From Nitrospirota bacterium (GTDB lineage Bacteria; Nitrospirota; Thermodesulfovibrionia; Thermodesulfovibrionales; JdFR-88): a DNA stretch of 64,000 bases. A program made the translations under genes and the position numbers. The notes under the pieces are model-generated. The model did no database searches and was not told the origin of the DNA. It saw nothing but the letters and a program-made list of their open reading frames with translations. The DNA is taken from positions 21,234 to 85,233 of the forward strand of contig JACWAF010000033.1 of NCBI GenBank assembly GCA_014874185.1, read 5' to 3'. Shown one piece after another: positions 3,539-27,583 of this stretch (positions are counted from its first letter, which is position 1; each line of letters begins with the position of its first letter).

Positions 3539-3566
3539 TTGACTCAGACAGGACCGAAAATATAAT
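3539..3566 (+). promoter_or_regulatory. Near-consensus sigma70-type promoter upstream of nuoA
   Basis: TTGACT (3539-3544), 16-nt spacer, TATAAT (3561-3566), about 100 nt upstream of the nuoA ATG. Sequence match only. Confidence 0.45.
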
Positions 3567-3664
3567 GAGGGTATAACGGACTCCTTGACTTTTCATGTCC
3601 CGGTGCTAGTTTGTTAATAGGCTTGGAGGCGAACGGTTCACCCTTTTTGGGGAGGACGGATTTG

Positions 3665-4075
3665 ATGGTCACGAAGGCCGGATACAGTGCAGAGTTATGG
3701 CCGCTTGCGGTCTATTTCGCGGGGGCGCTCCTCCTGGTCACAGGGCTTCTGGGCCTATCGCATTTCCTCGGAGAACAGCACAGGGAAAGGGCAACCGGCC
3801 AGCCCTATGAATCCGGCATTGCCGCCACAGGAACGGCTAGGGTCCGCTTCGACGTAAAATTCTATCTGCTGGCGATGATATTCGTGGTCTTCGACCTGGA
3901 GGCGGTCTTTTTAATAGCCTGGGCCATATCCGTCCGGGAGGACGGCTGGGCCGGATATATAGAGGTACTTGTCTTTGCGGGAGTGCTGGTGGCCGCCCTT
4001 GTTTACCTCTGGAAAATAGGCGCCCTGGACTGGGGCACCGAGGCGAAAAAAAAGGGGAGGGGATTCAGTCGATGA
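3665..4075 (+). CDS. nuoA: NADH-quinone oxidoreductase subunit A
   Basis: ATG at 3665 follows GGAGG (3651-3655). Three TM helices. PYESG and FDLEAVFL motifs typical of NuoA/ND3. Confidence 0.9.
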
Positions 4076-4701
4076 GGCCCAAAGGGGAAAGGGCATGGCC
4101 CGAGCTTCAAAAAACAGACCCGATACATGAGGCCGTAAAGCGCAATATCGCCTTCACCCGTCTTCAGGACATGATCTCCTGGGGCAGAAAGAATTCGATC
4201 TGGCCGTTCAACTTCGGCCTTTCCTGCTGTTACGTGGAGATGGCCACAAGTGTGACCAGCAGGTACGATATAGCCAGGTTCGGCGCGGAGGTCTTGAGGG
4301 GCTCCCCCAGGGAAGCCGATATGATTGTGATTGCCGGAACGGTCTTTGTAAAAATGGCCCCGGTCATCAAATGGCTTTATCAGCAGATGATGATGCCCCG
4401 GTGGGTAATTTCGATGGGTTCCTGCGCGAACTCCGGGGGGATGTACGATATCTACAGCGTTGTTCAGGGGGTGGACCAGTTCCTGCCGGTGGACGTCTAT
4501 GTGCCAGGCTGCCCGCCACGGCCCGAGGCCTTCATGGAGGGGCTTCTGCTTTTGCGGGAGAAGATAGGTAAGGAAAGGCGCCCGGTAAGCTGGGCAGCCG
4601 GTCCGCAGGAGGAGGAAATCCCGCTGATGCCCTCCATGCGCGACCTGAAAAGGGAAGAGAGGTCCCGGGTTACCGAGCTGCCTTCGCCGGATACCGTATG
4701 A
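4072..4701 (+). CDS. nuoB: NADH-quinone oxidoreductase subunit B, with a ~40-aa charged C-terminal extension
   Basis: ATGA overlap with nuoA. N2-cluster cysteines in GLSCC...[10 protein letters not shown]...VPGCPPRPE. Confidence 0.95.
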
Positions 4702-6458
4702 GCCACGTGGAAGCAAAAGGGCCCCCTTCCGTCCTGGATGAGCTTTCCGGGAAGTTCAAGGGCTCGGTGCTTTGCTTTCAGGAAACAAAGGACCGGATTC
4801 CCACGGCCTGGGTCAGCAGCATGGCCGCCCATGACGTGCTTGAATACCTGAAGACAGGCAGCCGCCGTTACCGCACGGTTTACGACCTCACCGCCATTGA
4901 CGAGCGCGTCCGTTCGAACAGGCAGGGCCAGCCGGAAAGCGATTTCACGGTCGTCTATCACCTGCTTTCATATGACAAGAACGAAGACGTAAGGATAAAA
5001 GTACCCCTGAAGGGCGAGAGCCCGTCACTAAAAAGCATCGTCGATATCTGGCCCGCGGCCAACTGGTACGAGCGCGAGGCGTGGGACATGTTCGGGATCA
5101 AATTTGAGGGGCATCCCTCGCTCAGGCGGATCCTGATGCCCCCATACTGGAAGGGGCACCCCCTCAGAAAAGAGCACCCGGCCAGGGCCACCGAGCTTGG
5201 CCCTTTTCTGATGCCGGATGAGATGGAGGCCTCGCTGGAGGACATGCTCAAATTCAAGCCTGAGGACTACGGGATGGTGCGGCACGCCGGGGACACGGAT
5301 TTCATGTTCCTTAACGTGGGGCCGCACCATCTGGGCACGCATGGCGTGCTCAGGATAGTACTGGAGCTGGACGGTGAAGAGATCATCGACGCAGTTATGG
5401 ATATCGGGTTCCACCACCGGGGCGCTGAGAAGATGGGGGAGCGCCAGTCATGGCATACATACATCCCCTATACGGACAGGATAGACTACCTTGGGGGCCT
5501 GCTGAACAACCTTGCCTACCTGCTGGCGGTGGAACAGCTGGCGGGGATAGACATCCCGCCCAGGGCGATGGCGATACGGGTGATGCTTGCGGAGCTGTTC
5601 CGCATAGAGAGCCATCTTGTATGGCTGGGCACATTCGCGCAGGACCTTGGCCAGCTCTCACCGGTCTTTTACACCTTCAACGACCGGGAGAGGATATTCT
5701 CAATCATCGAGGCGGTCTGCGGCGGAAGGATGCATCCAGAGTGGTTCAGGATAGGGGGGGTTGCCCAGGACCTGCCGAAGGGCTGGGACAAGATGATGCG
5801 CGATTTTCTCGCCTATCTGCCGAAACGGCTCCGCGAATACGACAGGCTGATAATGAACAACCGCATCTTCAAGGCCCGCACCCAGGGCGTGGGCAGATAC
5901 AGCCTTAGCGACGCAATAGAGTGGGGGGTCACGGGGCCGAACCTGAGGGCCTGCGGGCTGGAATGGGACTTCAGAAAAAAAAGGCCGTATGCGGGTTATG
6001 AGAATTTCGATTTCGAAATACCGACCGCCCCTTACGGGGACTGCTACAGCCGTGCACTGGTGCGCATGGAAGAGATGAGGCAGAGCATGCGGATAATCGG
6101 GCAGTGCATGGAGAATATGCCGGAGGGGCCTTACAAGTCGCATCATCCTCTTGCCGCCCCTCCCCTGAAAGAGCGCACGATGCACGACATAGAAACCCTG
6201 ATAGACCATTTTTTGAACGTGAGCTGGGGGCCTGTCATCCCGGCCGGAGAGGCGGTCTCCCGCATAGAGTCATCCAAGGGGAACTATTCATATTATCTGG
6301 TCAGTGATGGAAATACCGTTTCCTACCGGACCAGGATAAGGACCCCTTCGTTCCCACATATACAGACCGTCTCTTTTTTATGCCGGGGGCTGATGGTCTC
6401 CGACCTGATAGCCATCCTGGGGAGCATTGATTTCGTCCTTGCGGACATAGACAGATAG
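4698..6458 (+). CDS. nuoCD: NADH-quinone oxidoreductase fused subunits C and D
   Basis: 586 aa. The N-terminal 30-kDa part has [21 protein letters not shown]. The 49-kDa part has [15 protein letters not shown] and a C-terminal ADIDR. ATGA overlap with nuoB. Confidence 0.95.
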
Positions 6459-6487
6459 CGCGCGCATGGACGGGTGAAGGAAGGGCG

Positions 6488-6952
6488 ATGCTGAGCGAAG
6501 AGGAAAGAAAAGAGATCGAGGCGGAGGCAGGGCAATACGACAGGAAAGAGGCCGGGTCGGTGGAGGCCCTGAAAGTAGTCCAGAGGCACAGAGGATGGGT
6601 CTCCGATGAGGCCATCAGGGACATATCAGCAGCCCTCGATATGACGCCGGACGAACTGGACGCGGTTGCCACCTTCTACTCTTTCATCTTCAGAAGGGAA
6701 GTGGGCCGGAACCTGATACTGGTCTGCGACAGCGTTGCATGCTACGTAATGGGGTACCAGGGGGTGCTTGATTCGATAAAGGAAAAGCTGGGGATAGACC
6801 TGGGCGGCACGACGGAAGACCGAAGGTTCACCCTGCTGCCCATCTCCTGCCTGGGACAATGCGACAAGGCCCCGGCAATAATGATAAACGAGGACATTTA
6901 CGGCAATCTGGGGCCGGAGATGCTCGATTCCATTTTATCGAGGTATAAGTGA
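6488..6952 (+). CDS. nuoE: NADH-quinone oxidoreductase subunit E (24 kDa, 2Fe-2S)
   Basis: CDSVAC...CLGQCDKAP cysteine pattern; 154 aa. Confidence 0.93.
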   Translation: MLSEEERKEIEAEAGQYDRKEAGSVEALKVVQRHRGWVSDEAIRDISAALDMTPDELDAVATFYSFIFRREVGRNLILVCDSVACYVMGYQGVLDSIKEKLGIDLGGTTEDRRFTLLPISCLGQCDKAPAIMINEDIYGNLGPEMLDSILSRYK

Positions 6953-8223
6953 ACGAACGGCCGCTTACGGGGATGTTCAGGCCGGACGGGCTTGCCCCGG
7001 ATATAAAGGAATATGAATCCAAAGGGGGCTACCAGGGGTTGCGCAGGGCGCTCTCGATGAGCCCCGGGGAGGTGCAGGAAGAGGTGAGGGCCTCGGACCT
7101 GAGGGGCAGGGGCGGGGCGGGCTTCCAGACAGGCGCCAAGTGGAGTTTCGTTCCGATGGGAGAGAACGCGCCCAGACCCAAATACCTGGCGGCCAACTGC
7201 GACGAGATGGAGCCGGGGGCCTTCAAGGACCGCCTGCTGATGGAAGGCAACCCGCACCTTTTGATAGAGGGAATGATAATAGGCGCGTGGGCGGTGCAGG
7301 CGGATATCGCCTTCATCTTCCTGCGCTGGGCATATAAGGAGGCGGCACGGCGGCTGGAGAAGGCGCTCCACGAAGCCTGTCAAGGCGGCTATCTTGGGAA
7401 AAACATCCTGGGCTCGGGGTTCAGCCTTGAGATGCGAATTCACACGAGTGCCGGCCGCTACATCTGCGGCGAGGAGACGGCCCTTATTACCGCCCTGGAG
7501 GGGAAGCGCGCGACTCCCAGGTCGAAACCCCCGTTTCCGCAGACGAGCGGGCTATGGGGAAAGCCTACCGTGGTGAACAATACCGAGAGCTTTTGCAATG
7601 TGCCCCATATCCTTGCGAAGGGGGCCGAATGGTACAAGTCCATAAGCCGCTCCGCAGACGGCGGCACCAAAATATATACGGTAAGCGGAAGGGTGAAAAA
7701 CCCCGGCTGGTGGGAACTGCCGATGGGCGCCACCGTCCGCGAACTCATTTATGAACATGCGGGCGGCATGCGCGAGGGGTATAAATTCAGGGCTGTGATA
7801 CCGGGCGGGGCTTCGACCGAGTTTCTGATAGAGGAACACCTGGACGTGAAGATGGATTTCGATGATGTCCAGAAGGCGGGAAGCCGCCTTGGCACCGGGA
7901 CCATGATAGTGCTTGACGACCGCACCTGTCCGGTAGGGACCGTCTTCAACCTGGAAAATTTTTTCGCACGCGAGTCCTGCGGCTGGTGCACGCCGTGCAG
8001 GGAGGGCCTGCCGTGGATAGCAAAAACCCTGAATGCCATCGAATGCGGCGAGGGCCGTTATGAGGACCTGAGTATGCTGGAGGCCCATTGCCATCTGCTT
8101 GCTCCGGGCCATACCTATTGCGCGCTGGCGCCGGGGGCGGTAGAGCCCCTGCAGAGCGCCCTCAAGTACTTCCGCGAGGATTTTTCAAGGCATATTGAGG
8201 GGAAAGGCTGCCCGTGGAGCTAG
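6949..8223 (+). CDS. nuoF: NADH-quinone oxidoreductase subunit F (51 kDa; FMN/NADH site)
   Basis: GTG start in a GTGA overlap with nuoE. Motifs GRGGAGFQTGAKW, CDEMEPGAFKDR, SCGWCTPCREG. Confidence 0.95.
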   Translation: MNERPLTGMFRPDGLAPDIKEYESKGGYQGLRRALSMSPGEVQEEVRASDLRGRGGAGFQTGAKWSFVPMGENAPRPKYLAANCDEMEPGAFKDRLLMEGNPHLLIEGMIIGAWAVQADIAFIFLRWAYKEAARRLEKALHEACQGGYLGKNILGSGFSLEMRIHTSAGRYICGEETALITALEGKRATPRSKPPFPQTSGLWGKPTVVNNTESFCNVPHILAKGAEWYKSISRSADGGTKIYTVSGRVKNPGWWELPMGATVRELIYEHAGGMREGYKFRAVIPGGASTEFLIEEHLDVKMDFDDVQKAGSRLGTGTMIVLDDRTCPVGTVFNLENFFARESCGWCTPCREGLPWIAKTLNAIECGEGRYEDLSMLEAHCHLLAPGHTYCALAPGAVEPLQSALKYFREDFSRHIEGKGCPWS

Positions 8224-8227
8224 ACCA

Positions 8228-10960
8228 ATGGCGACCATATATATAGATAACAAACCCTATCAGGCAAACGAGAAGCAGAACCTGCTGCACGCCTGCCTGT
8301 CACTGGGCTTCAACATACCTTATTTCTGCTGGCATCCGGCGATGAACTCGGTGGGCGCGTGCAGGCAGTGCGCCGTAAAAGAGTTCAAGGACGAGAACGA
8401 TAAACGGGGAAAGATCGTGATGTCCTGCATGACAGCGGTAAGAGACGGGCTCAGGATATCGATAGACGACCCGGAGGTAAAGGAATTCCGCGCCAGGGTG
8501 ATCGAGTGGCTGATGACCAACCATCCCCATGACTGTCCCGTCTGCGACGAAGGCGGCGAGTGCCACCTGCAGGACATGACCGTGATGACGGGCCATGTTT
8601 ACCGCCGGTTCCGCTTCAGGAAGCGCACGTATGTAAACCAGGATTTGGGGCCTTTCGTGAACCATGAGATGAACCGATGCATACAGTGTTACAGGTGCGT
8701 TCGGTTTTATAACGAATACGCGGACGGCCGGGACTTTGGCGTATTCGCCTGCCATAACCACGTCTACTTCGGACGGCATAAGGACGGAGTGCTGGAGAGC
8801 AAATTCAGCGGAAACCTGGTAGAGGTCTGCCCGACGGGGGTCTTCACGGACAAAACGCTGAAGCGCCATTACACGCGCAAATGGGACCTGCAGACCGCGC
8901 CCTCCATATGCCCCCACTGCGGAATGGGCTGTAATACAATACCCGGCGAGCGGTACGGCACTCTGCGCAGGATCAGAACCCGCTACAGCGGGCAGGTGAA
9001 CGGGTATTTCATCTGCGACCGGGGCAGATACGGCTATGAGTTCGTCAATTCCCCGGAGCGGATAAAGGACCCCCTCCGCCGCGTATCAGGGGAAGGCGCC
9101 GGGCCCGGTAAATATGCCCCTTTTGAAAAAGGGACCGCCTTGGGGGCGATAAAAGACGTGCTGAACGTCTCCAGGGGGGTGATGGGAATAGGTTCGCCGC
9201 GCGCCTCGCTTGAGGCCAATTTCGCCCTTAAAAAACTGGTGGGGGCGGAGAATTTTTTCCTCGGCATACCTGATGCGGACTACCGGATTTTGTCTCTGGT
9301 CCTTGATATATATACCAAAGGCAGCGCAAGGACGCCCACCCTGGACGAAGTGGAATCCTCCGATGCAATCCTTATTCTGGGGGAGGATGTCTCCAGTACG
9401 GCCCCCAGGCTTGCCCTTGCGATACGGCAGGCCGTAAAAAGAAAGAGCTTTGAGGCGGCCGGCGGTATGACGATACCCTATTGGGACGACAAGGCGGTGC
9501 GTATTGCCGCGGGCGGCCGGAGAAACCCGCTTTTCATTCTCTCCTGTTCGCATACAGGTCTGGACGACATGGCCAAAGAGAGATATTTTGCCGCTCCGGA
9601 CGATCTGGCCCGGCTGGCATTCGCCTTCGCCAGCCGGATAGACACGGGCGCGCCCGGACCAGAGGGCATGAGTCCGGATTTTAAAGATCTGACCGCCAGG
9701 ATTTGCGGCGCGCTCGAAAGCTCAAAAAATCCGTTAATCGTATGCGGCGCGGGCGCAAAAAACGAAGGCCTGGTGCAGGGGGCGGCCAACCTGGCTTGGG
9801 CCTTGAGAAAACAGGGGAAGAGCGCGTTCCTCTCTTTTGTCCTGCCCGGGGCCAACGAGCTTGGCCTTGGCATCATCGGGGGCCGCCCTGTTGCGGACGC
9901 TTTGAAGGCGATAGGGGAACAAAAGGCCGATACCGTCATAGCGCTTGAAAACGACCTCTATAGGTCCCTCGATAAAAAAAATGCGGACACGCTTTTGTCC
10001 GCAAAATTCTCGATAACGCTGGACCAAATCTCAAATGAGACCACAAAAAAAAGCTGGGCCGTCCTTCCCGCCGCGAGCTTCGCCGAATCGGAGGGCACCT
10101 ATGTTAATTTCGAGGGCAGGGCGCAGCGGTTCTACAAGGTTTTTGTTCAGGGCGGGGGGACGGAAGAGAGCTGGAAGTGGCTGCGCGACATAATGCTTGA
10201 GGCCGGAAGGCCGGAGGCCTCAAACTGGGATACGCTGGACGGCATACTGCGGGACATGGCAAACGAAATTCCGGTCCTTGCCCCGATAACGGGGATAGCC
10301 CCGCCTGAGACTTTCCGGATAGCCGGGATGAAGGTGCCCCGCCAGCCGCACAGGTATAGCGGAAGGACGGCCATGCACGCGGACAAGAGCCTGCTTGAGC
10401 CCAAGCCCCCGGAAGACCGTGATTCCGCACTTTCATTCTCCATGGAGGGCTATGCCGGGGTGCCGCCTCCGGCGCTGATACAGCGGTTCTGGGCCCCAGG
10501 ATGGAATTCGGTGCAGGCGTTGAACAAATTCCAAAGCGAAGTGGGCGGCCCGCTCCGGGGCGGAGACCCTGGGAAGAGGCTCTTCGAGCCGGGGCCGGGG
10601 GCATCTCCGGCTTACTTCGCCCAGGTCCCGCCGGGTTTCCAGCCCAGGAAAGACGAGTGGCTCCTGTTGCCCGTTTACCACATTTTCGGCTCGGAAGAAT
10701 TGAGTATGCATGCTCCGGGAATAGCCTCACTCGCCCCTGATCCGTATATAGCCCTTTCTGAACAGGACCGCCTGCAGTTGGGCAAACAGGAAGGGGAATA
10801 CATGGAGGTCGGCATAGGGGAAACGTCTTACAGCCTTCCTGTAAAACCGGTCCGGGAATTGCCGGAGGGAATAGCGCTGATGCCGTCAGGGCTGCCCGGC
10901 CTTTCCGGGATCGGATTTCCGGTCTGGATAAAAAAGCCCGGCAAGGGAGCACGAAGATGA
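8228..10960 (+). CDS. nuoG: NADH-quinone oxidoreductase subunit G, long (~910 aa) form
   Basis: ATG at 8228 (MATIYIDNKPY). Motifs CRQCAV, HPHDCPVCDEGGECHLQD, CIQCYRCVRF...CPTG, then a molybdopterin-oxidoreductase-like C-terminal region. The upstream extension of the ORF to 8195 overlaps nuoF and is not needed. Confidence 0.93.
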   Translation: MATIYIDNKPYQANEKQNLLHACLSLGFNIPYFCWHPAMNSVGACRQCAVKEFKDENDKRGKIVMSCMTAVRDGLRISIDDPEVKEFRARVIEWLMTNHPHDCPVCDEGGECHLQDMTVMTGHVYRRFRFRKRTYVNQDLGPFVNHEMNRCIQCYRCVRFYNEYADGRDFGVFACHNHVYFGRHKDGVLESKFSGNLVEVCPTGVFTDKTLKRHYTRKWDLQTAPSICPHCGMGCNTIPGERYGTLRRIRTRYSGQVNGYFICDRGRYGYEFVNSPERIKDPLRRVSGEGAGPGKYAPFEKGTALGAIKDVLNVSRGVMGIGSPRASLEANFALKKLVGAENFFLGIPDADYRILSLVLDIYTKGSARTPTLDEVESSDAILILGEDVSSTAPRLALAIRQAVKRKSFEAAGGMTIPYWDDKAVRIAAGGRRNPLFILSCSHTGLDDMAKERYFAAPDDLARLAFAFASRIDTGAPGPEGMSPDFKDLTARICGALESSKNPLIVCGAGAKNEGLVQGAANLAWALRKQGKSAFLSFVLPGANELGLGIIGGRPVADALKAIGEQKADTVIALENDLYRSLDKKNADTLLSAKFSITLDQISNETTKKSWAVLPAASFAESEGTYVNFEGRAQRFYKVFVQGGGTEESWKWLRDIMLEAGRPEASNWDTLDGILRDMANEIPVLAPITGIAPPETFRIAGMKVPRQPHRYSGRTAMHADKSLLEPKPPEDRDSALSFSMEGYAGVPPPALIQRFWAPGWNSVQALNKFQSEVGGPLRGGDPGKRLFEPGPGASPAYFAQVPPGFQPRKDEWLLLPVYHIFGSEELSMHAPGIASLAPDPYIALSEQDRLQLGKQEGEYMEVGIGETSYSLPVKPVRELPEGIALMPSGLPGLSGIGFPVWIKKPGKGARR

Positions 10961-11910: not shown

Positions 11911-11913
11911 CGA

Positions 11914-12429: not shown

Positions 12430-12436
12430 GAGCGAT

Positions 12437-12949: not shown

Positions 12950-12950
12950 G

Positions 12951-18107: not shown

Positions 18108-18135
18108 TTGACACTGAAAGCCCTCATGATAGACT
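18108..18135 (+). promoter_or_regulatory. Candidate sigma70-type promoter for the cytochrome c / nar unit
   Basis: TTGACA (18108-18113), 16-nt spacer, TAGACT (18130-18135), inside the 123-bp nuoN/cytochrome-c spacer. Sequence match only. Confidence 0.3.
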
Positions 18136-18215
18136 TCAAAGAGAAAAAACCGGGCCTTCTCAAATTGAAAAGCAGGATTGTTTTGTTTTTAAAATAGCGG
18201 TCTTAGAGGTGTTTG

Positions 18216-18732: not shown

Positions 18733-21700
18733 ATGGGCTGGATACAGGACATAGTGGACCCCAAGGCAAGACTGTGGGAGGAATTGTACCGGAACCGGTG
18801 GGAATACGACCGACTGCACAGGAGCACCCATGGCGTGAACTGCACGGGCGGATGTTCCTGGGAGGTCTACGTGAAAGACGGCATCGTGGTCTGGGAGCTG
18901 CAGGCCACCGATTATCCTTCCCTTGAGCCCGGACTTCCCGGTTATGAGCCCCGCGGATGCCAGAGGGGCATAACCTTTTCCTGGTATATATACAGCCCTC
19001 TCAGGGTGAAATACCCCTATATAAGAGGCGTACTGGCCGATATGTGGCGGAAGGCCAGGGCGGCCTTCGCCGATCCCGTCGAGGCATGGGCGTCGATTAT
19101 GGAAGATGAAGAGGCCAGGAAGAGATTTCAGAAGGCCAGGGGAAAGGGCGGACTGAGGCGCACTACATGGGACGAAGCCGTGGAGATAATCTCCGCCGCC
19201 ACCCTTTATACCATAAAGAAGTACGGCCCCGACCGGCTGGCGGGTTTTACGCCCATCCCGGCCATGTCCATGCTCAGCTACGCCTCGGGCGCCAGGTTCC
19301 TGCAGCTTCTGGGCGGGGTAGTCCTCAGCTTTTACGACTGGTATGCCGATTTCCCTCCGGCCTTTCCGGAGGTCTGGGGGGACAAGACCGACGTTGGGGA
19401 GAGCGCGGACTGGTACAACAGCAAGATGATCGCCGTTATGGGGTCGAACCTGAACATGACGAGGACGCCTGACGTGCACTTTGCCGCGGAGGCAAGGAAC
19501 AACGGCTCCAAACTTGTCGTCTTCTCCCCGGATTTCAGCCAGCTCTCCAAATACGCCGACTGGTGGCTGCCAGTGAGGGCCGGGCAGGACGCGGCCTTCT
19601 GGATGGCCGTGGACCACGTGATCCTTAAAGAGTTTTACGCCGATGCGGAGGTCCCTTTCTTCTCCGGGTATCTGAAAAAATATACGGACGCCCCGTTCCT
19701 GGTTGAAATAGAAGTGAAAGAGGACTCCAACAGGGCTGGAAAATTCCTCCGGGCGGGCGAGCTTGACCGGTATAAAGGTTCCGAAAACCCCGAATGGAAA
19801 CTCCTGGTATTCGATGCCAAAACGAACTCGGCAAAATCTCCCAACGGCTCGATAGGGTTCAGATGGCAGAAGCGGGAAGGGCTGTGGAACCTCAATATGA
19901 AAGACGGCGAGGACGGTTCGGAAATAGAGCCGGTGCTCAGTTTTATAAAAGACAGGGATGCCGTCATCCCGGTAGATTTCCATTCTGCCGGGGATGCCGG
20001 GAATCTCCGGCGCGGGGTGCCGGTAAAGTACATCGAGACTGCGAGGGGCCCGGTGGCCGTAAGCACGGCCTTTGACCTGATGACGTCGCAGTTCGGCGTC
20101 TCGCGCGGCCTGGAGGGGGATTATCCTGAAGGGTACGGCGATAATATGGCTTATACCCCTGCATGGCAGGAAAAACATACGGGGATAAGTGCGGACACCG
20201 TTGTGCAGTTCGCGCGCGAATGGGCCCGCACCGCAGTCAGCACCAGGGGCAAATGCATGGTAATCGCGGGCTCCGGCGTGAACCACTGGTACAACGCCAA
20301 CCTGATTTACCGTTCGGCCATTACGGCCCTGATGCTCTGCGGGTGCGTGGGGGTGAACGGGGGAGGGATGAACCACTATACCGGGCAGGAGAAGATCGTC
20401 CCCGAGTCGGCCTGGCGCACTATCGCGTTCGCGACGGACTGGCTCAATCCGCCACGCCTTCAGAATACGCCCTCTTACCATTACGTGCACAGCTGCCAGT
20501 GGCGCTACGACTCGCCCGGACGCGAGGACAGGATCCTTGGGAACGATCACCCCATGGATATGCAGGCCATGGCGGTGCGCCTAGGGTGGCTGCCTTTTTA
20601 TCCCCAGTTCGACAGGAGCACCATCGGGCTTGTGAAAGAGGCCGCAGGGGCGGGTGCGAAAACGGATGATGAGATAATAAGCTGGCTTATACGAGAACTG
20701 AAGGAAGAGAGGGTCCGCTTCGCCGTGGAGGAACCGGACAGGCCTGAAAACTGGCCCAGGGTTCTTTTCATATGGCGCGGCAACGCCCTCCACACCAGCG
20801 CAAAAGGCGAAGAGTATTCGTTCAAACATTACCTTGGCACCGGCACAAACGAGATATCCGAAGAGACGAAGAACCCGCCCATCCATGATGTAAGCATGAA
20901 GTGGCCGGCCCCCGAGGGAAAGCTGGACCTTGTCGTGGATCTTAATTTCAGGATGGACACCTCGGCGCTTTATTCCGATATCATACTGCCCTCCGCAAGC
21001 TGGTACGAAAAAGACGACATGAACACGACCGACCTTCATTCCTATATCCATCCCCTTTCCGCCGCGGTGCCCCCGTGCTGGGAGTCGAAGGACGACTGGG
21101 AGATTTTCAAGACGATAGCAAGGAAAGTGAGCGAGCTTTCCAGGGCCCATTTCCCAAGGCCGTTCAAGGACATCGTTGCCACCCCCCTCATGCATGATTC
21201 AAGGGATGAAATGGCACAGCCCTCGGTCAAGGACTGGAAAAAGGGCGAGTGCGAGCCCATCCCCGGAAAGACCATGCCCAGGTTCACCATAGTGGAAAGA
21301 AATTATCCGGACCTCTATAACAGGTATATCTCCTTCGGCCATCTTCCCAAAAAGACCGGCATGCACGAAAAGGGCGTCCACTGGCAGATGGAAGACCTCT
21401 ATTACGATTATCTGAAGGGAGCGCCGTCTGAAACCTGGGGCGGCAAGACCTACATATCACTTTCGGGGGCAAGGGAGGCGGCCAATGTGGTCCTGTTCTT
21501 CGCCCCGGAGACAAACGGTGAGGTATCACACAGGGGTTTTGAGGACCTCGAAAAAAAGACCGGCGTGAAACTGGCCGGCCTGGCGGAAGAGACGAGGGGG
21601 GTGCGCTACAGTTTCGCGGACCTCCTGGCCCAGCCAAGAAGGATACTTACATCTCCATGCTGGACCGGCATAACGAACAGGGGCAGGGCATACTCGGCCT

Positions 21701-22329
21701 TTGTGATAAACGTGGAGCGGGGAGTGCCCTGGCGGACCCTTTCCGGGCGGCAGCATTTTTACATGGACCATGAAGGCTATCGCGAGTTCAACGAGGGCTT
21801 CCCCACCTTCAAGGCAAAGCTTACGAAAGAGCGCTCCGGGGACCTGCGGAAGACAGCCTCCGCGGGCAGGTCCGTCCTTCTCAACTGCCTGACCCCGCAT
21901 GGCAAGTGGCACATACACAGCACCTATTCTGACAACTTGCTGATGCTGCTCCTGTCGAGAGGGGTGGAGCCTTTCTGGCTGAACCTGGCGGACGCCGCGG
22001 AAATTGGCGTAAGGGACAACGACTGGGTGGAGGTCTACAACGACAACGGGGTGGTGGTGACCAGGGCGGTCCTGAGCGCGCGAATCCCGAGGGGGGTGGG
22101 CTTCTTCTATCATGCCCCTGAGCGCACTATGGGTTTCCCGAAATCGCCCTTGAGAAATATGAAACGGGGAGGCGGCACGAACGCCCTGACGCGCGTGCGC
22201 CTTAAACCCCTTTTCATGATCGGCGGATACGCGCAGTTTTCATACGCGTTCAATTACTGGGGGCCTCCGGCCCCGGACAGGGACACGTACGCCCTGGTCC
22301 GGAAGCTGGAAGGCAAGCCGGTTTTTTAA
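18733..22329 (+). CDS. narG: Respiratory nitrate reductase alpha subunit (NarG-type Mo-bisMGD enzyme; could equally be a cytoplasm-facing NxrA)
   Basis: ATG at 18733 after AGAGGTG. HRSTHGVNCTGGCSWEVY is the FS0 H-x3-C-x3-C motif. Similarity to my recollection of E. coli NarG runs end to end (GPDRLAGFTPIPAMSMLSYASGARF, YDWYADFPP, ILPSASWYEKDDMNT, TPHGKWHIHSTYSDNLLML). No twin-arginine signal. Confidence 0.93.
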   Translation: MGWIQDIVDPKARLWEELYRNRWEYDRLHRSTHGVNCTGGCSWEVYVKDGIVVWELQATDYPSLEPGLPGYEPRGCQRGITFSWYIYSPLRVKYPYIRGVLADMWRKARAAFADPVEAWASIMEDEEARKRFQKARGKGGLRRTTWDEAVEIISAATLYTIKKYGPDRLAGFTPIPAMSMLSYASGARFLQLLGGVVLSFYDWYADFPPAFPEVWGDKTDVGESADWYNSKMIAVMGSNLNMTRTPDVHFAAEARNNGSKLVVFSPDFSQLSKYADWWLPVRAGQDAAFWMAVDHVILKEFYADAEVPFFSGYLKKYTDAPFLVEIEVKEDSNRAGKFLRAGELDRYKGSENPEWKLLVFDAKTNSAKSPNGSIGFRWQKREGLWNLNMKDGEDGSEIEPVLSFIKDRDAVIPVDFHSAGDAGNLRRGVPVKYIETARGPVAVSTAFDLMTSQFGVSRGLEGDYPEGYGDNMAYTPAWQEKHTGISADTVVQFAREWARTAVSTRGKCMVIAGSGVNHWYNANLIYRSAITALMLCGCVGVNGGGMNHYTGQEKIVPESAWRTIAFATDWLNPPRLQNTPSYHYVHSCQWRYDSPGREDRILGNDHPMDMQAMAVRLGWLPFYPQFDRSTIGLVKEAAGAGAKTDDEIISWLIRELKEERVRFAVEEPDRPENWPRVLFIWRGNALHTSAKGEEYSFKHYLGTGTNEISEETKNPPIHDVSMKWPAPEGKLDLVVDLNFRMDTSALYSDIILPSASWYEKDDMNTTDLHSYIHPLSAAVPPCWESKDDWEIFKTIARKVSELSRAHFPRPFKDIVATPLMHDSRDEMAQPSVKDWKKGECEPIPGKTMPRFTIVERNYPDLYNRYISFGHLPKKTGMHEKGVHWQMEDLYYDYLKGAPSETWGGKTYISLSGAREAANVVLFFAPETNGEVSHRGFEDLEKKTGVKLAGLAEETRGVRYSFADLLAQPRRILTSPCWTGITNRGRAYSAFVINVERGVPWRTLSGRQHFYMDHEGYREFNEGFPTFKAKLTKERSGDLRKTASAGRSVLLNCLTPHGKWHIHSTYSDNLLMLLLSRGVEPFWLNLADAAEIGVRDNDWVEVYNDNGVVVTRAVLSARIPRGVGFFYHAPERTMGFPKSPLRNMKRGGGTNALTRVRLKPLFMIGGYAQFSYAFNYWGPPAPDRDTYALVRKLEGKPVF

Positions 22330-22340: not shown

Positions 22341-23828
22341 GTGGACATCCGCGCCCAGGTATCGATGGTCTTTCATCTGGACAAGTGCATAGGCTGCCAC
22401 ACATGCAGCATCGCCTGCAAGAACATCTGGACCCCCAGGCGCGGCACCGAGTACATGTGGTGGAACAACGTTGAGACGAAGCCCGGCACCGGCTATCCCA
22501 CCCTGTGGGAAGACCAGGGTAAATACAGGGGCGGCTGGGCCGTCCACAAGGGAAAACCCAAACTGAAATTGCAGGGCAGGGCGGGCGCGCTGGCCAACAT
22601 ATTCTTCAACCCGTATCTGCCCACGATGGGCGACTATTACGAGCCCTGGACATATCACTATGAAGACCTCGCCAATGCCCCGGAGGGCGACGACCAGCCG
22701 GTCGCGACCCCGGTCTCGGAGATAACCGGCCGGGACATGGAAATAGAGGCCGGGCCTAACTGGGATGATGATCTGAGCGGCTCTTACATTTATGCCGAAA
22801 GCGACCCGAACAGGCTGGCGCTTACGCCGGAGGAGAGAGAGGTCTCCTTCAGGATGGAGAGGCTCGCCTTCTTCTACCTGCCCAGGATCTGCAATCACTG
22901 CCTGAACCCCGGCTGCCTTGCCGCGTGTCCGGCGGGCGCCATTTACAAACGCGGGATGGACGGCATAGTGCTTGTAAGCCAGGACAAGTGCCGGGCGTGG
23001 AGGATGTGCATATCCGGCTGTCCGTATAAAAAAGTCTATTACAACTGGGCGACGGGAAAATCCGAGAAGTGCATATTGTGCTATCCAAGGCAGGAAACGC
23101 AGCAGCCGCCCGCGTGTTTCCACGCGTGCGTGGGGCGCATCCGTTATCTGGGGCTGGTGCTTTATGATGCCAAGATGATAGAGGCGGCCGCCTCCGTTCC
23201 GGACCATGAGCTTGTGAGCGCGCACAGGGACATTATTAAAGACCCGTTTGACCCGGAGGTCATCGCCAGGGCGAAAGAGAATGGCATATCCGATCACATG
23301 ATCAAAGCCGCGCAGTCGTCGCCCGTATACAAATTTGTGAAAGAGTGGCGGATCGCGCTCCCCCTTCATCCAGAATTCAGGACACTGCCGATGCTCTTTT
23401 ATGTCCCGCCGCTTCTTCCGGTTACAGCCTCGATGAAAGACGGCATCTACGAGAGCACGGGTGAATTTTTCGGCTCACTTGAGAATTTGAGGGTCCCTCT
23501 CAGGTATTTCGCGTCGCTTCTGGCCGGGGGGAACGAAGCCGAAGTGGAGCGCTCTTTCAAAAAGCTCTACGCGGTGCGGGTCTACAGGCGCGCGCAGACG
23601 GCGGGCGATATAAGCCAGAAGGAGGTCAGCCGGGTGCTCGAAGCGGCGGACACGTCTCCGGAGGAAGTCGAAGCCATATACAAAATGAGCTCGCTTGCCT
23701 CATATGAGGAGCGGTTCGTCATGCCGCCGTTCATGCGCGAGGCGGCCATAGAGGCCGAGGAAGAGCCGTCCAGGAGAAAAACGGATGCAGGGGCCGGGTT
23801 CATAAGCAAACTGAGGAGGGGTATCTGA
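22341..23828 (+). CDS. narH: Respiratory nitrate reductase beta subunit (Fe-S)
   Basis: GTG start 7 nt after AGGAG. MDIRAQVSMVFHLDKCIGCHTCSIACKNIW..WWNNVETKPG closely parallels E. coli NarH. Further Cys clusters CNHCLNPGCLAACP and CRAWRMCISGCPY. Confidence 0.95.
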   Translation: MDIRAQVSMVFHLDKCIGCHTCSIACKNIWTPRRGTEYMWWNNVETKPGTGYPTLWEDQGKYRGGWAVHKGKPKLKLQGRAGALANIFFNPYLPTMGDYYEPWTYHYEDLANAPEGDDQPVATPVSEITGRDMEIEAGPNWDDDLSGSYIYAESDPNRLALTPEEREVSFRMERLAFFYLPRICNHCLNPGCLAACPAGAIYKRGMDGIVLVSQDKCRAWRMCISGCPYKKVYYNWATGKSEKCILCYPRQETQQPPACFHACVGRIRYLGLVLYDAKMIEAAASVPDHELVSAHRDIIKDPFDPEVIARAKENGISDHMIKAAQSSPVYKFVKEWRIALPLHPEFRTLPMLFYVPPLLPVTASMKDGIYESTGEFFGSLENLRVPLRYFASLLAGGNEAEVERSFKKLYAVRVYRRAQTAGDISQKEVSRVLEAADTSPEEVEAIYKMSSLASYEERFVMPPFMREAAIEAEEEPSRRKTDAGAGFISKLRRGI

Positions 23829-23832: not shown

Positions 23833-24363
23833 ATGGAAAACTGCCCTGCGGGGCTTTATGCCCTTTTTGCGGACCTGATGGATTATCCCACCCCCGCCTT
23901 GAAGGAAAAGGCGGGCGAGTGCGCTTCCGCCTTGCCGGCGGTGAACGGAAAGGCCCTGGGCCCGTTTTCCAGGTTCAGGGATTTTCTGGAAGGGGCCGAA
24001 CTCTCCCTGGTCGAGGAACTTTACACAAGGACATTCGATCTGCAGCCCGTGTGTCCCCCATACGCCGGGCAATACCTCTTCGGTCAGGACATGAGGCGGG
24101 GCATGTTCATGGCGAAATTAAGGAAGCTCTACCGCGAGCGCAATTTCCCGGAGAACGGCGAACTTCCGGACCACCTTGGCGTGATGCTCAGGTTCGTGTC
24201 GAAAAGCCCCTCCATCGAGGAGGCCAGGGAGATTGTGGAATTCTGTCTTGTGCCCTCTTTTCAGAAAATGGTCTCGAAGCTTGCGGAAGGGGAAAACCCT
24301 TACGGGTTTCTGGTCAACGCAATCCTCCTGGCCCTGAACGGGAAAGAGGAGAAAGCGGCGTAG
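23833..24363 (+). CDS. narJ: Nitrate reductase molybdenum cofactor assembly chaperone (NarJ/TorD family)
   Basis: 176 aa. Position between narH and narI. YTRTFDL and ELPDHLGVMLRF motifs typical of NarJ. Confidence 0.8.
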   Translation: MENCPAGLYALFADLMDYPTPALKEKAGECASALPAVNGKALGPFSRFRDFLEGAELSLVEELYTRTFDLQPVCPPYAGQYLFGQDMRRGMFMAKLRKLYRERNFPENGELPDHLGVMLRFVSKSPSIEEAREIVEFCLVPSFQKMVSKLAEGENPYGFLVNAILLALNGKEEKAA

Positions 24364-24367: not shown

Positions 24368-25072
24368 ATGTCAGATACGGTCTATTTCATAGCCTTCCCC
24401 TACCTTGCCCTCTTTGCCGCATTGGGAGGCGGCCTTTACAGGTACTACAAGCACCGGTTTACGTATTCGAGCGTCTCCTCCCAGCTACTGGAGAACAGGA
24501 TGCTTTTCTGGGGTTCCGTGCCCTGGCATTACGGGATAATCCTGATACTTCTTGCCCATATCGTTCCCCTGGTGGCAACGCCCTTCTGGATATGGCTCCA
24601 TGCGGATCCCACCAGGATACTGCTCCTGGAGGTCATCGGCTCGGCCATGGGGTTCCTGGCCATCCTGGGCATGGCGGCCCTGATCCTGAGGCGCCTCTTC
24701 AGCTTGAAGCCGCGCCATGCCACATCCATCATGGACTGGGTGCTATTGATCGACCTGGCATTTCAGATAGCGCTCGGGTTTTACATCACCCTGTATTACA
24801 GGTGGGGATCAAGCTGGTATCTGTTCACGGCCACTCCGTGGATACGCTCGCTTGCCGCCCTGAACCCCAGGGTAGATTTCGTCAATGAGCTGCCGCCGGT
24901 TGTCCAGCTCCATTTCGTGAACGGGTTCCTGGTTATCGCCCTGATACCGTTTACAAGGCTGGGCCACTTGTTTACCGTTCCGGTCACTTATCTGTGGAGG
25001 CCGTTCCAGGTATTTATATGGAGCAGGAAGAAAAACGGCTATAATGAAACGGGAGGCATATATGGGAAATGA
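24368..25072 (+). CDS. narI: Respiratory nitrate reductase gamma subunit (diheme b, membrane)
   Basis: 234 aa with five TM helices. Conserved His in WHYGIILILLAHIV and later helices. The gene order narGHJI fits. Confidence 0.85.
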   Translation: MSDTVYFIAFPYLALFAALGGGLYRYYKHRFTYSSVSSQLLENRMLFWGSVPWHYGIILILLAHIVPLVATPFWIWLHADPTRILLLEVIGSAMGFLAILGMAALILRRLFSLKPRHATSIMDWVLLIDLAFQIALGFYITLYYRWGSSWYLFTATPWIRSLAALNPRVDFVNELPPVVQLHFVNGFLVIALIPFTRLGHLFTVPVTYLWRPFQVFIWSRKKNGYNETGGIYGK

Positions 25073-25589
25073 AGAGGAGCGGTCAGCCCCTACGGTCTCA
25101 AGGCGGAGCTTTGTATTGAGAGCGGTCATAGGCGTGTTCACTTCGCTGGGCGCGCTGGTGATGGCCGTGCCTTTTTTAAGGGTGGTATTCAACGCCGCCC
25201 CGCTTAGAAAGGCCGAATGGGCCGAAGCCGCCAATATCAGCATATTGCCGGAAGGGCAGCCGAAAGACGTTAAATTCGAGGCCCATTCGGTGGACGCTTA
25301 TTTGCGGCAGATGAAACTGAGGAGCGTATGGGTGATAAAGCACTCCCCCGAAATTTTTTCCGTTTTTTCCCCCATCTGCCCCCACCTGGGCTGCTATTAT
25401 AAGTGGGACCCCTCGACACAGCATTTCGAATGCCCCTGCCATGGCAGCGTTTTCACCATTACCGGGAAGGTCATAGGCGGGCCTGCTCCAAGGCCGCTGG
25501 ACACCCTCCCTTACAAGGTGCAGGGGGGCAAGCTGTTTGTGAAGTGGGAGAGGTTCCAGGTCGGCATACCTCAGAAGGTAAGGGTATAG
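25062..25589 (+). CDS. Rieske [2Fe-2S] protein with twin-arginine signal (bc-complex copy 1)
   Basis: GGGAGG then ATG at 25062 (an alternative ATG lies at 25044). SRRSFVLRAVIG Tat motif. CPHLGC...CPCHGS Rieske boxes. Overlaps the narI 3' end by 11 nt. Confidence 0.9.
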   Translation: MGNEEERSAPTVSRRSFVLRAVIGVFTSLGALVMAVPFLRVVFNAAPLRKAEWAEAANISILPEGQPKDVKFEAHSVDAYLRQMKLRSVWVIKHSPEIFSVFSPICPHLGCYYKWDPSTQHFECPCHGSVFTITGKVIGGPAPRPLDTLPYKVQGGKLFVKWERFQVGIPQKVRV

Positions 25590-25591
25590 CC

Positions 25592-27583
25592 ATGGCCTGG
25601 AAATGGTTTACCGAAAAGTGGCCCTATTACCAGCTTAAAAAGCTGCTCCTTTATGAGGAGCTGCCCGGAGGAGCTGCGTTTGCGTCTACGCTGGGAAGCT
25701 CCCTCATGGTCATCTTTACCTTGCAGGTCCTCACCGGCATAGCCCAGCTCTTCTATTATGTCCCTACGACAGACCATGCCTACGACAGCGTGGCCTATCT
25801 GCGCACGGAAGTCCCGTTCGGCTGGTTCGTTCATAACATGCACTACTGGGGCGCCAACGCGATGGTCCTCGTTATCGCCCTGCACATGATAAGGGTTTAT
25901 GTCTGGGGGGCATACAAGACACAGCTTACCTGGCTTATCGGGGTCGCCCTCATGCTTTGCGCAATGGTAATGAGCTTCACCGGCGCGCCCCTCATATGGG
26001 ACGAGAAGGGATACTGGGCAGGTGAAGTAGGCTCCGGCATAACCAGTACTGTCCCTGTTTTGGGCAATATTGTGAAAACGATACTCCGGGGCGGCGAATC
26101 GATGGGCCAGCTTTCGATATCCCGGTTCTTCGTATTTCATGTGTGGGTCTTCGCGCCGGTCCTGGCTTTCCTGATAGCGGCCCATATAGCGGCCTTAAGG
26201 ACGACCGGGATAGCAGGCCCCTGGGATGAAAGAAAGAGAAGGCGGGTGGGCCATTTCTGGCCGGACCAGGCGGCTAGAGACATTATCGTGGCCTCGGTCG
26301 TCTTTTTCATCCTGGTCACCCTTTCCGTATTTTTGCCCCCTCCGTTCACCGGGCAGGCGGACCCCCTCAACACATCCTATGTGCCCAAACCGGAGTGGAA
26401 CTTCCTTTTCGTCTACCAGGCGCTCAAATATTTTCAGGGCCCGCTGGAGCCGGTCGGCACCGTGGGCGTGCCGACAGTTCTTATAGTTCTCCTTGTCATA
26501 TTGCCCTTCATTGACAAGGGCCCGGAACGGAACCCGCTTAGAAGGCCGATTGCAATGGCCTGCCTGTTCGTATATGCCTGTTTCATAATAGCCATGACCA
26601 TAATGGGTTATCTCAGCCCCGGTTTTGCCCAGATGGCCGGGGCGGCCGGGGCCCCGGCGGCAAGGTTGGGAAAAGGCGAGACCGGCGGCGCAAAAGGGCC
26701 GGCTGGGAAGGGCGTTGCGGCCGGCCGGAAGCTCTTTCAAAGCGAAGGCTGTGCCGGATGCCACAAGGTAAACGGACAGGGCGGAACCATGGGGCCTGAG
26801 TTATCAGGGGCCACGCTGAAGGGAAAGACCAGGAAGTGGCTTGCCGATCAGATAAGAAACCCGAAATCACATAATCCGAATTCCATAATGCCCGCTTTCA
26901 GCCAGCTCTCGAAGAACCAGGTAAACGCGCTGGTTGACTATCTCATGGGTCTTGCTGGCACTGGCGGGGCCCCGGGGCCTGCGGCAAAGCCGCAGCCCCG
27001 GGCGCCGGGTGCCGGTGCTCAAGTCCAGCCCGGTCAGGCAAATGCGGTATCGGCACCGGGGCAGGCCCAACCCAGCCAATTAAAGGTGGTCCCGCCCGAT
27101 ACGGTGCCGGAAACTCCGTCGGGTAAAGCGGCATATATAATAGGCAGTGCCAGCAATGGAGAACAGCTCTTCAAGGAACAATGCGCGCAATGCCATGGGG
27201 CAAAAGGGGCTGGCGGAGTGCCCAATCCCGGTTCGGCTGAGGGGGTGGTCCCCCCGCTTAGTCCCATAAATAAAAACATCGCGAGCCCGGACCCGAAGCA
27301 GTTTGCCCGGAACATAGATAAATTCATTCAGCATGGGGCCATTCCCCCAGGGCCCAATCCGGCCCTGCAGATGCCGGTCTTCGGCGACAATAATTCCCTC
27401 ACCCAGCCGGAGATTTCAAACATAGAGGCATACATACTGAAGCTGAACGGGGTGGACCGCAGCATCCCCGCTCACCCCGGAATGGACCCGCGCCTGTTTT
27501 ATGCGGTATTCGTTATCGCCTATGTTGTCGCCGCAATCGTTCTCCTCATGATGTGGCGAAATGCGGGGAGGAGCCGGACATGA
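25592..27583 (+). CDS. Fusion protein: cytochrome b (b6-like N domain + subunit IV-like C domain) + two class I c-type heme domains + C-terminal TM anchor
   Basis: ATG at 25592 (MAWKWFTEKW). Helix B is H-x13-H (HYWGANAMVLVIALH) and helix D is H-x14-H (HVWVFAPVLAFLIAAH). KPEWNFLF sits at the PEWY position. CAGCH..MPAF and CAQCH..MPVF heme c units are separated by P/A/G/Q-rich linkers. Terminal TM helix FYAVFVIAYVVAAIVLLMMW. Confidence 0.9.
   Translation: MAWKWFTEKWPYYQLKKLLLYEELPGGAAFASTLGSSLMVIFTLQVLTGIAQLFYYVPTTDHAYDSVAYLRTEVPFGWFVHNMHYWGANAMVLVIALHMIRVYVWGAYKTQLTWLIGVALMLCAMVMSFTGAPLIWDEKGYWAGEVGSGITSTVPVLGNIVKTILRGGESMGQLSISRFFVFHVWVFAPVLAFLIAAHIAALRTTGIAGPWDERKRRRVGHFWPDQAARDIIVASVVFFILVTLSVFLPPPFTGQADPLNTSYVPKPEWNFLFVYQALKYFQGPLEPVGTVGVPTVLIVLLVILPFIDKGPERNPLRRPIAMACLFVYACFIIAMTIMGYLSPGFAQMAGAAGAPAARLGKGETGGAKGPAGKGVAAGRKLFQSEGCAGCHKVNGQGGTMGPELSGATLKGKTRKWLADQIRNPKSHNPNSIMPAFSQLSKNQVNALVDYLMGLAGTGGAPGPAAKPQPRAPGAGAQVQPGQANAVSAPGQAQPSQLKVVPPDTVPETPSGKAAYIIGSASNGEQLFKEQCAQCHGAKGAGGVPNPGSAEGVVPPLSPINKNIASPDPKQFARNIDKFIQHGAIPPGPNPALQMPVFGDNNSLTQPEISNIEAYILKLNGVDRSIPAHPGMDPRLFYAVFVIAYVVAAIVLLMMWRNAGRSRT

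Follow-up and report, generated by a model that had tools for sequence, protein, structure and literature searches.

In the standard account, the membrane-bound nitrate reductase (Nar) of bacteria is supplied with electrons by quinol itself, and complex III is left out of the path, as stated explicitly in a phylogeny of 2012 (PMC3509893). In our study, a 64-kb stretch of Nitrospirota DNA (contig JACWAF010000033.1, positions 21,234 to 85,233; here called the window, with its own numbering) was found to contain a nar operon that begins with a gene for a c-type cytochrome (narC) and runs into the genes of a cytochrome bc complex (bc), namely a Rieske iron-sulfur protein and a cytochrome b fused to cytochrome c domains (cytochrome b::c). 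In most of its relatives, many of them uncultured, NarI and the Rieske protein are fused in one polypeptide (NarI::Rieske). We hold it to be probable, by a modest degree, that the region 18216-27583 encodes one respiratory unit, in which a Thermus-type Nar forms a physical and functional whole with Rieske/cytochrome b::c proteins of its own.

NarCGHI of Thermus thermophilus shares with the window the gene order narC-G-H-J-I, a cytoplasm-facing NarG, and a membrane-anchored periplasmic cytochrome c encoded by the first gene, and a dedicated NADH dehydrogenase is encoded nearby in both (nrc in Thermus, nuo in the window). NarC is the fourth subunit of the Thermus enzyme, a membrane-anchored periplasmic dihaem cytochrome which binds NarI, and the enzyme reportedly functions without complex III, for which it even substitutes (PMC7694296). 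The Thermus NarC has two haems whereas the window NarC has one, and narI of Thermus is followed by narK/narT, with Rieske and cytochrome b genes absent, whereas narI of the window is followed by the Rieske and cytochrome b::c genes. A similar first-gene cytochrome, dihaem in this case, was noted in 2009 in the cytochrome c-narGYJI operon of Geobacter metallireducens (Gmet_0328-0337), for which links beyond the menaquinol pool were considered possible (PMC2700814). Unlike the window, that operon has no Rieske or cytochrome b genes described in it and is followed by narK, ppcF, and moeA/moaA.

The narB, narC, narG, narH cluster of the haloarchaea Haloferax and Haloarcula contains Rieske and cytochrome b genes beside narGH, and a Q-cycle was proposed for such clusters (PMC2483277, PMC3509893). 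However, the archaeal NarG carries a twin-arginine translocation (Tat) signal and faces outward, and neither NarI nor a c-type cytochrome is present, whereas the window NarG is cytoplasmic, NarI is kept (as the fusion partner of the Rieske protein in relatives), and c-haems are found in NarC and in the cytochrome b fusion. The only experimental precedent that we found for a bc-dependent bacterial Nar is Nar1 of Streptomyces coelicolor, a cytoplasm-facing NarGHI that requires the bcc-aa3 supercomplex in vivo and co-purifies with it (PMC7931247). The Streptomyces genes are unlinked, with no fusion and no NarC, and the partner is the actinobacterial type of supercomplex. Nap of Campylobacter was reported to depend on Qcr (PMC6195509). 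The NxrABI enzymes of Nitrobacter, Nitrococcus, and Nitrolancea are also cytoplasm-facing and NarG-like, and their clusters encode a NarI-like anchor and a cytochrome c (PMC7694296). The window differs from them in the lack of nxrX between the alpha and beta genes and of any nitrite-oxidiser context in its 64 kb. In the Nitrobacter cluster, nxrX, encoding a peptidyl-prolyl isomerase, lies between the alpha and beta genes, and Nitrobacter is not known to carry a Rieske fusion.

The elements of the window locus are thus known singly, as the NarC-type Nar, the haloarchaeal Rieske and cytochrome b genes beside nar, and the bc-dependent Nar of Streptomyces. In the literature covered, which left out most subscription journals, we found no description of a NarI::Rieske fusion, nor of a bacterial cytoplasm-facing NarGHI with a built-in Rieske/cytochrome b::c.

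NarI, the Rieske protein, and cytochrome b::c

The narI and Rieske genes of the window overlap by 11 nucleotides (nt), as claimed in the initial annotation and read again from the sequence. The Rieske gene lies in the +1 frame relative to narI and is preceded by a GGGAGG Shine-Dalgarno sequence. The closest syntenic genome locus, L001, belongs to a Nitrospirae metagenome-assembled genome and has the order nuoL-M-N ... narC-narGHJI-Rieske-cytbc-rpiB-zwf-pgl in common with the window; there, NarI and the Rieske protein form one in-frame open reading frame (ORF) of 396 amino acids (aa), as read from the DNA. A single in-frame NarI::Rieske ORF was also read from the DNA of the metagenome loci L085, L162/L163, L164/L165, and L166. 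When the L001 fusion was used as query against a collection of 5.8 billion proteins, the domains PF02665 (Nitrate_red_gam) and PF00355 (Rieske) were found together in 94 of the 120 best clusters. The fused clusters were drawn from NCBI, JGI, ENA, and Logan assemblies, and their named sources were Nitrospiraceae, Thermodesulfobacteriota, Acidobacteriota, and Bryobacterales. The window itself is an unfused member of this NarI/Rieske-linked class.

The haem-ligand histidines of NarI were kept in 89-93 of 93 fused clusters, and the internal Tat twin arginines and the six ligands of the Rieske cluster were present in all 93; therefore the NarI half, the Rieske half, and the Tat signal are under selection. 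In the AlphaFold2 model of the L001 fusion, the NarI bundle and the Rieske domain were both predicted with confidence, and between them lay a disordered linker and one transmembrane helix. This fits the topology in which the C-terminus of NarI is cytoplasmic and the Rieske helix carries the cluster domain outward, and polytopic Rieske proteins with dual Sec/Tat insertion are known (PMC5449189). In a subgroup of the fused proteins, 490-497 aa in length and represented by L166, the linker was extended by about 90 residues.

In the five fused operons (L001, L085, L162, L164, and L166), cytochrome b::c adjoins nar, and no separate Rieske gene was found in any of the five as read, so that the adjacent cytochrome b has to work with the Rieske protein tethered to NarI. 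The operon of L085 (582-10427) and L086 (9935-13235) is permuted, with the order cytochrome b::c, dihaem narC, narG, narH, narJ, and narI::Rieske, so that the bc genes bracket the nar genes, and there is no Rieske gene upstream of its cytochrome b. The short contig L111 covers only cytochrome b::c and the narC gene after it. The linkage was found with at least three cytochrome b lineages, namely the window/L001/L162 type, the L085/L111 type, and the Bryobacterales type, which is shorter, has one haem, and carries a PDWY motif, and in at least two subclades of NarG. Genes for NnrS, ScdA, and hemerythrin were found beside the fused operons of Bryobacterales; within 10 kb on either side of the fused operons, no nir or nor genes were present.

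One of the two readings offered by the initial annotation was ordinary nitrate respiration with an independent bc complex that is merely co-located. This is contradicted by the fusions in five operons and in the 94 clusters, and mere co-location is excluded by recurrence, fusion, and purifying selection taken together. The recurrence of the nar/Rieske/cytochrome b linkage, gene fusion included, in unrelated assemblies is beyond chance, and to judge from these genes the bc complex would be a dedicated partner of this Nar and not a mere neighbour.

The redox-tuning pair of the window Rieske protein was S...F (SF). In the fused family (P0121-P0240), the tuning residues were GF in 46 clusters, SY in 43, and SF in 3; on the scale quoted in PMC3509893, the corresponding potentials are about 120-160 mV for GF, 300-350 mV for SY, and 200-230 mV for SF. 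The cytochrome b::c protein of the window scored 142 bits with PF00033 and 154 bits with cytochrome b6. The histidine pairs of its cytochrome b part, read from the sequence, are 14 and 15 residues apart, which is the b6-type spacing. Its CxxCH motifs lie at residues 387 and 531, so that the unit from narC to cytochrome b::c holds three c-haem motifs. The Qo motif, usually PEWY, was PEWN in the window as well as in L162 and L086, and the peptide pattern KPEWNFLF was among those with which metagenome relatives were retrieved. The - strand of the window encodes, at 39137-40248, a second Rieske protein of 154 aa together with a cytochrome b6 of 216 aa, whose gene is not followed by one for subunit IV or cytochrome c; the genome therefore holds at least two Rieske/cytochrome b systems.

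NarGHJI and the cytochrome c NarC

NarG, NarH, and NarI of the window each reached the score of a curated equivalog family, and NarJ passed its Pfam profile and just missed the equivalog. NarI contained five hydrophobic segments and, in the alignment, all four histidines that serve as haem ligands. NarG matched the Escherichia coli NarG structures with 1238 bits vs 123 bits for the periplasmic NxrA of Kuenenia (7b04_B). The FS0 ligands H50, C54, C58, and C93 and the Mo-ligand D223 (Salmonella numbering) were all conserved in NarG, with the FS0 motif H-x3-C-x3-C...C kept, and the N-terminus was devoid of a twin-arginine (RR) motif. A periplasmic nitrite oxidoreductase (NXR) of the Nitrospira/Kuenenia type was ruled out by the low Kuenenia score together with the lack of this motif.

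The window NarG was 60% identical to NarG of Thermus and 46-48% identical to proteobacterial and enterobacterial NarG (47% for the enterobacterial one). The identity was 63-71% with NarG of Nitrospirota, Geobacter, Acidobacteriota, and Chloroflexota, and about 64% with that of Geobacter hydrogenophilus, a congener of the nitrate reducer G. metallireducens; it is G. hydrogenophilus that falls in the window NarG clade. In a neighbour-joining tree, the Thermus/Geobacter-type clade, including the window, was split from the proteobacterial clade; the Thermus NarG came from a plasmid collection, and NxrA of Nitrobacter, Nitrococcus, or Nitrolancea was not among the sequences compared. The relatives found by searching 5.8 billion proteins with NarG are the best 120 matches, and a NarG scan of genomes gave 80 loci, retrieved by shared words, 73 of them of the proteobacterial type. 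The spacer between narG and narH is 11 nt; no nxrX was found between them in the window, and no gap of nxrX size in the 80 genome loci. No narK or other nitrate/nitrite transporter gene was recognised in the 64-kb window. A gene for a transporter of the SLAC1/TehA family adjoins the nar operons of L162 (17126-18166) and L167 (624-1670), where narK would be expected.

The cytochrome c, described in the initial annotation as something that a quinol-oxidising NarGHI does not need, is no oddity. It was found to be a homologue of Thermus NarC, the product of the first gene of narCGHJIKT. The window NarC contained a single CMACH motif and hydrophobic segments at residues 1-19 and 130-148, and gave no match in Pfam. 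It aligned at 35% identity with the part of Thermus NarC that comprises the C-terminal haem domain and the membrane anchor, lacked the N-terminal haem domain, and was 47% identical to its L001 counterpart. A narC homologue was found directly upstream of narG in all six NarC-clade genome loci with upstream sequence (L001-L005 and L007), whereas none stood there in the 73 loci of proteobacterial type. Because Thermus, Geobacter, and these six loci share narC as first gene, the cytochrome c and nar half of the locus corresponds to a known layout, from which it differs in having a NarC with one CxxCH instead of the two found in Thermus and most relatives.

One-haem NarC, in which the N-terminal haem domain is lost, was found in the bc-linked window, L001, L162, and L164, and dihaem NarC in the bc-less forms, namely Thermus, L002-5, L007, L167, and L168. 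This distribution suggests that the outer haem domain of NarC may be dispensable once a cytochrome b::c partner is present. A strict rule that one-haem NarC means bc linkage was rejected, because dihaem NarC and bc occur together in L085/L086. L081 likewise has a two-haem NarC.

Layout of the array and neighbouring genes

The features of the region are given in Table 1. The 20 consecutive + strand genes from nuoA to cytochrome b::c described in the initial annotation were recovered by the ORF listing and by profile searches (Pfam and NCBIfam). The gap between nuoN and the cytochrome c gene was likewise the sole spacer longer than 40 nt, and the stop codon of the cytochrome c gene lies 1 nt before the ATG of narG, both as read from the sequence. 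The remaining junctions of the 20-gene array range from -14 to +29 nt. The reported limits of the array were found to be wrong at both ends. No start codon lies at position 3539, from where a translation runs into stops after 8 codons; the position is the first base of a promoter-like site. The nuoA gene most likely starts at ATG 3665, and a start at TTG 3611 is possible. At the other end, same-strand genes (rpiB, zwf, pgl, gnd, and a haloacid dehalogenase (HAD) hydrolase gene) continue beyond 27583 to 32066.

Table 1. Features of the window from the complex I operon to the end of the candidate transcription unit
Feature	Position	Strand	Description or evidence
Sigma-70-like promoter match upstream of nuoA	3539..3566	+	TTGACT-16-TATAAT; 11/12, top match in 3300-18300
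nuoA-B-CD-E-F-G-H-I-J-K-L-M-N, 13-gene complex I operon	3665..18092	+	Pfam, NCBIfam
nuoN/narC spacer, 123 nt	18093..18215	+	promoter-like site 18108-18135; TTGACA-16-TAGACT with upstream TG, 10/12
narC-like membrane-anchored monohaem cytochrome c, 171 aa	18216..18731	+	signal peptide, one CxxCH, C-terminal transmembrane helix
narG, catalytic subunit, cytoplasm-facing	18733..22329	+	TIGR01580, 1456 bits vs cut-off 1084
narH, iron-sulfur subunit	22341..23828	+	TIGR01660, 633 bits vs cut-off 524
narJ, assembly chaperone	23833..24363	+	PF02613; TIGR00684 57.0 bits, just below cut-off 59.35
narI, dihaem b membrane anchor	24368..25072	+	PF02665 191 bits; TIGR00351 106.1 vs 105.55
Rieske 2Fe-2S protein, Tat motif SRRSFV, one transmembrane helix	25062..25589	+	cluster motifs CPHLGC, CPCHGS
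Cytochrome b6-like + subunit IV + two cytochrome c domains + C-terminal transmembrane helix, 663 aa	25592..27583	+	PF00033, PF00032, PF00034 x2
rpiB, zwf, pgl, gnd (oxidative pentose phosphate)	27580..31309	+	rpiB overlaps cytochrome b::c stop by ATGA
14-bp-stem hairpin directly 3' of gnd, candidate transcription unit end	31313..31344	.	sequence

The tight spacing, by which the cytochrome c and bc genes had been called welded to nar, could not be upheld as evidence of coupling. On the - strand, the functionally unrelated genes aroA-cmk-plsC-ispH-rpsA-sppA-HU-Rieske2-cytb6 are joined by equally tight junctions, from -23 to +12 nt, and after this control the ATGA-type junctions were rejected as a sign of functional coupling. 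Since tight junctions join unrelated genes in this compact genome, spacing alone proves nothing. The view that the layout differs from the textbook narGHJI did hold, and the recurrent linkage and fusion in relatives tie the cytochrome c and bc genes meaningfully to nar. In relatives, the linkage of narC, nar, and bc recurs, often fused; the adjacency of nuo and nar is not conserved.

The promoter-like site at 18108-18135 was the only strong intergenic one within the array, as a consensus match and not a mapped end. Because it sits in the spacer between nuoN and narC, two transcripts would be expected, nuoA-N and narC to gnd. The hairpin after gnd has a perfect 14-bp stem, CTACTTTTCTTTTTTGCAAAAAAGAAAAGTAG. 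The stretch 31313-31440 continues after it with A/T-rich sequence and another repeat of the AGAAAGTAG motif, and is followed by the HAD hydrolase gene.

The initial annotation had placed complex I in the same one-strand array and, in one of its readings, in the same electron-transport module. Complex I is not part of the unit, because the only long spacer, with its promoter-like site, parts nuo from narC and the link of nuo with nar is not conserved; the nuo operon is probably a neighbour of the nar-bc unit, transcribed separately from its own promoter. L162 has an otherwise identical operon without nuo upstream, where genes for KdpD, a response regulator, and Usp are found. In L001, nuo lies 5 kb from the operon, and a 1457-aa protein with phosphoenolpyruvate-utilising, pyruvate phosphate dikinase-like domains is encoded between nuoN and narC (4172-8545), where the window has its 123-nt spacer. 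The nuo operon of the window contains a fused NuoC/D (4698-6458; NF008728, 981 bits) and a long NuoG of 910 aa (8228-10960). We take this 13-gene format with fused NuoC/D to be the one best known from Escherichia coli, and to our knowledge it is unusual outside Proteobacteria.

For a survey of neighbourhoods, 80 metagenome loci encoding cytochrome b::c relatives were fetched. Cytochrome b::c was followed by nuoA in 7/80 of these loci, zwf was present about 1 kb upstream of Rieske-cytbc, without nar, in at least 8/80, and nar adjoined cytochrome b::c in only 3/80. In five loci (L088, L090, L092, L105, and L106), nuoN was followed directly by Rieske-cytbc without nar, and in the tree the window cytochrome b groups with the nuo-adjacent ones. 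The nuo-bc and bc-pentose phosphate arrangements are thus the older neighbourhoods, because they are found in cytochrome b::c loci that lack nar, and the complex I adjacency reflects this nar-independent synteny; in the window lineage, the narC-narGHJI cassette stands between nuoN and the Rieske gene.

Downstream, zwf overlaps rpiB by 1 nt, pgl overlaps zwf, and gnd follows 63 nt further on. The order of cytochrome b::c and the pentose phosphate genes is kept in L001 (18883-23294) and L162 (13110-17106), rpiB is translationally coupled to cytochrome b::c through the ATGA overlap, and rpiB-zwf-pgl-gnd are probably on the same transcript as cytochrome b::c. Elsewhere in the window, a 307-aa multihaem c-type cytochrome with weak matches to cytochrome c7 and MtrC/MtrF-like domains was encoded on the - strand at 51716-52639.

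Electron path and alternative explanations

The most likely function of the unit would be nitrate reduction fed through a Q-cycle. Menaquinol would be oxidised at the Qo site of cytochrome b, and one electron would pass by way of the Rieske centre to the c-haems of the cytochrome b fusion, then to the single haem of the membrane-anchored NarC and to the two b-haems of NarI. The electron would thereby cross the membrane and reach NarG by way of NarI and NarH, with nitrate reduced in the cytoplasm, and the second electron would be recycled through the cytochrome b haems as in a Q-cycle. This hard-wired path is proposed because the Rieske protein is tethered, cytochrome b has its own c-haems, and NarC is reduced to the anchor-proximal haem domain. 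Two charges from the Q-cycle and two from the transmembrane passage would give about four per two electrons, vs two for a quinol-oxidising NarGHI. With menaquinol at about -74 mV and nitrate/nitrite at about +430 mV, roughly 1 eV is available per electron pair, which is enough. The nitrate-reducing direction appears favoured by analogy, since Thermus and G. metallireducens reduce nitrate, NnrS, ScdA, and hemerythrin genes are neighbours in relatives, and the host is Thermodesulfovibrionales-like. The ribosomal protein S1 encoded in the window was 62-67% identical to its named relatives, all of which come from metagenome-assembled genomes of Nitrospirota or Thermodesulfovibrionales. More tentatively, and at a strength that falls somewhat short of probable, we propose a widespread class of Nar supercomplexes, in which NarI is fused or translationally coupled to a dedicated Rieske protein and a Q-cycle with a haem wire would give about twice the charge yield of NarGHI.

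Several observations weigh against the proposal of a joined respiratory unit. We infer the path from bc through NarC to NarI from gene fusion and domain loss. NarI retains all four haem ligands and may oxidise quinol directly, which would make the input from bc unnecessary. An arginine lies one residue before the position aligned with Lys86 of E. coli in 78/93 fused clusters, and an arginine beside this position is common in bc-linked and bc-less NarI alike. The narI and Rieske genes are split in the window, the only split case that we encountered; an assembly error or a real frameshift is possible, no slippery sequence for programmed frameshifting was evident at the overlap, where no further search was made, and, with a good Shine-Dalgarno sequence before the Rieske ATG, the split may be real. 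The one-haem correlation of NarC is broken by L085/L086. The closest NarG relatives include the bc-less L167 (71%) and L168 (69%), and the nar-bc linkage is therefore easily gained and lost. No single redox regime can be drawn from the division of the Rieske tuning residues among GF, SY, and SF, and the tight coupling extends to the pentose phosphate genes, so that co-transcription needs no shared function.

If NarI does take menaquinol electrons directly, the two modules could be co-expressed or co-assembled and work in parallel. The bc complex would then feed downstream cytochrome c-dependent enzymes (nitrite, nitric oxide (NO), or nitrous oxide reductases, or a haem-copper oxidase), and the fusion would serve only stoichiometry or packing. 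We consider this rather unlikely. It is favoured by the haem ligands and the basic residue near the quinol site kept in NarI, by the usual position of the bc module beside nuo or zwf without nar, as of a general-purpose complex III, and by the second Rieske/cytochrome b6 pair of the window; in addition, Thermus NarC sends electrons outward to Nir/Nor and replaces complex III (PMC7694296). However, if the two proteins did not interact directly, it would be difficult to account for a covalent link of NarI and the Rieske protein across several phyla and with several lineages of cytochrome b, and nir and nor genes were not seen within the 10 kb flanking the fused operons. The outer haem domain of NarC is lost in most bc-linked forms; in Thermus, it was the distal haem c that mattered more when nitrite/NO respiration was tested by complementation (PMC7694296).

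The initial annotation had also considered a module of the Nitrobacter type, with forward and reverse electron transport. In such an enzyme, nitrite would be oxidised at NarG, and the electrons would leave by way of NarI and NarC for cytochrome c and then an oxidase, with a fraction of them driven uphill through bc and complex I to NADH. Enzymes of this family can run in both directions, a closely similar cluster that includes a NarC homologue is stated for Nitrobacter hamburgensis in a review of the Thermus system (PMC7694296), and reverse operation of the cytochrome c-nar operon was raised in the Geobacter genome paper (PMC2700814). We nevertheless judge it improbable. The directly upstream position of nuo in the window would suit it, as would the SLAC1/TehA-type transporter gene close to the operons of L162 and L167. 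Against it, the adjacency of nuo and nar is not conserved, nxrX is lacking from the 11-nt spacer of narG and narH, and no oxidase or CO2-fixation gene was found within the 64-kb window. The characterised members of the NarG clade reduce nitrate, the neighbours in relatives are nitrosative-stress genes, and the lineage is Thermodesulfovibrionales-like. Such lineages use menaquinone, and with nitrite at +430 mV and menaquinone at -74 mV each electron pair would have to be lifted by about 1 eV, more than the roughly four charges that the path could supply at normal membrane potential.

A chance juxtaposition, in which narCGHJI arrived as a mobile cassette and came to lie between nuoN and housekeeping Rieske/cytochrome b::c genes without any functional tie, is in our view highly improbable. 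Such an insertion would explain the origin of the layout: there are relatives with nuoN followed by Rieske-cytbc and no nar (the five loci above), the window cytochrome b clusters with the nuo-adjacent ones, tight junctions between unrelated genes occur in this genome, and nar is horizontally mobile in Thermus (PMC7694296). It would not explain in-frame fusions that are under purifying selection in many lineages, and it leaves the permuted operon of L085/L086 unexplained.

The occurrence of the NarI::Rieske fusion across several phyla, among abundant bacteria of soil, sediment, and groundwater, argues for a nitrate respiration that is hard-wired to bc. For annotation, it follows that proteins of about 400 aa named nitrate reductase gamma subunit are NarI::Rieske hybrids. 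If the proposal is true, the rule that electron donation to Nar bypasses Rieske/cytochrome b would be overturned, and the unexplained bc dependence of Streptomyces Nar1 would have a counterpart at the level of genes. Structural work could draw on a natural supercomplex held together by a covalent tether, and the first step of denitrification and of dissimilatory nitrate reduction to ammonium would yield more energy in these groups than models assume.

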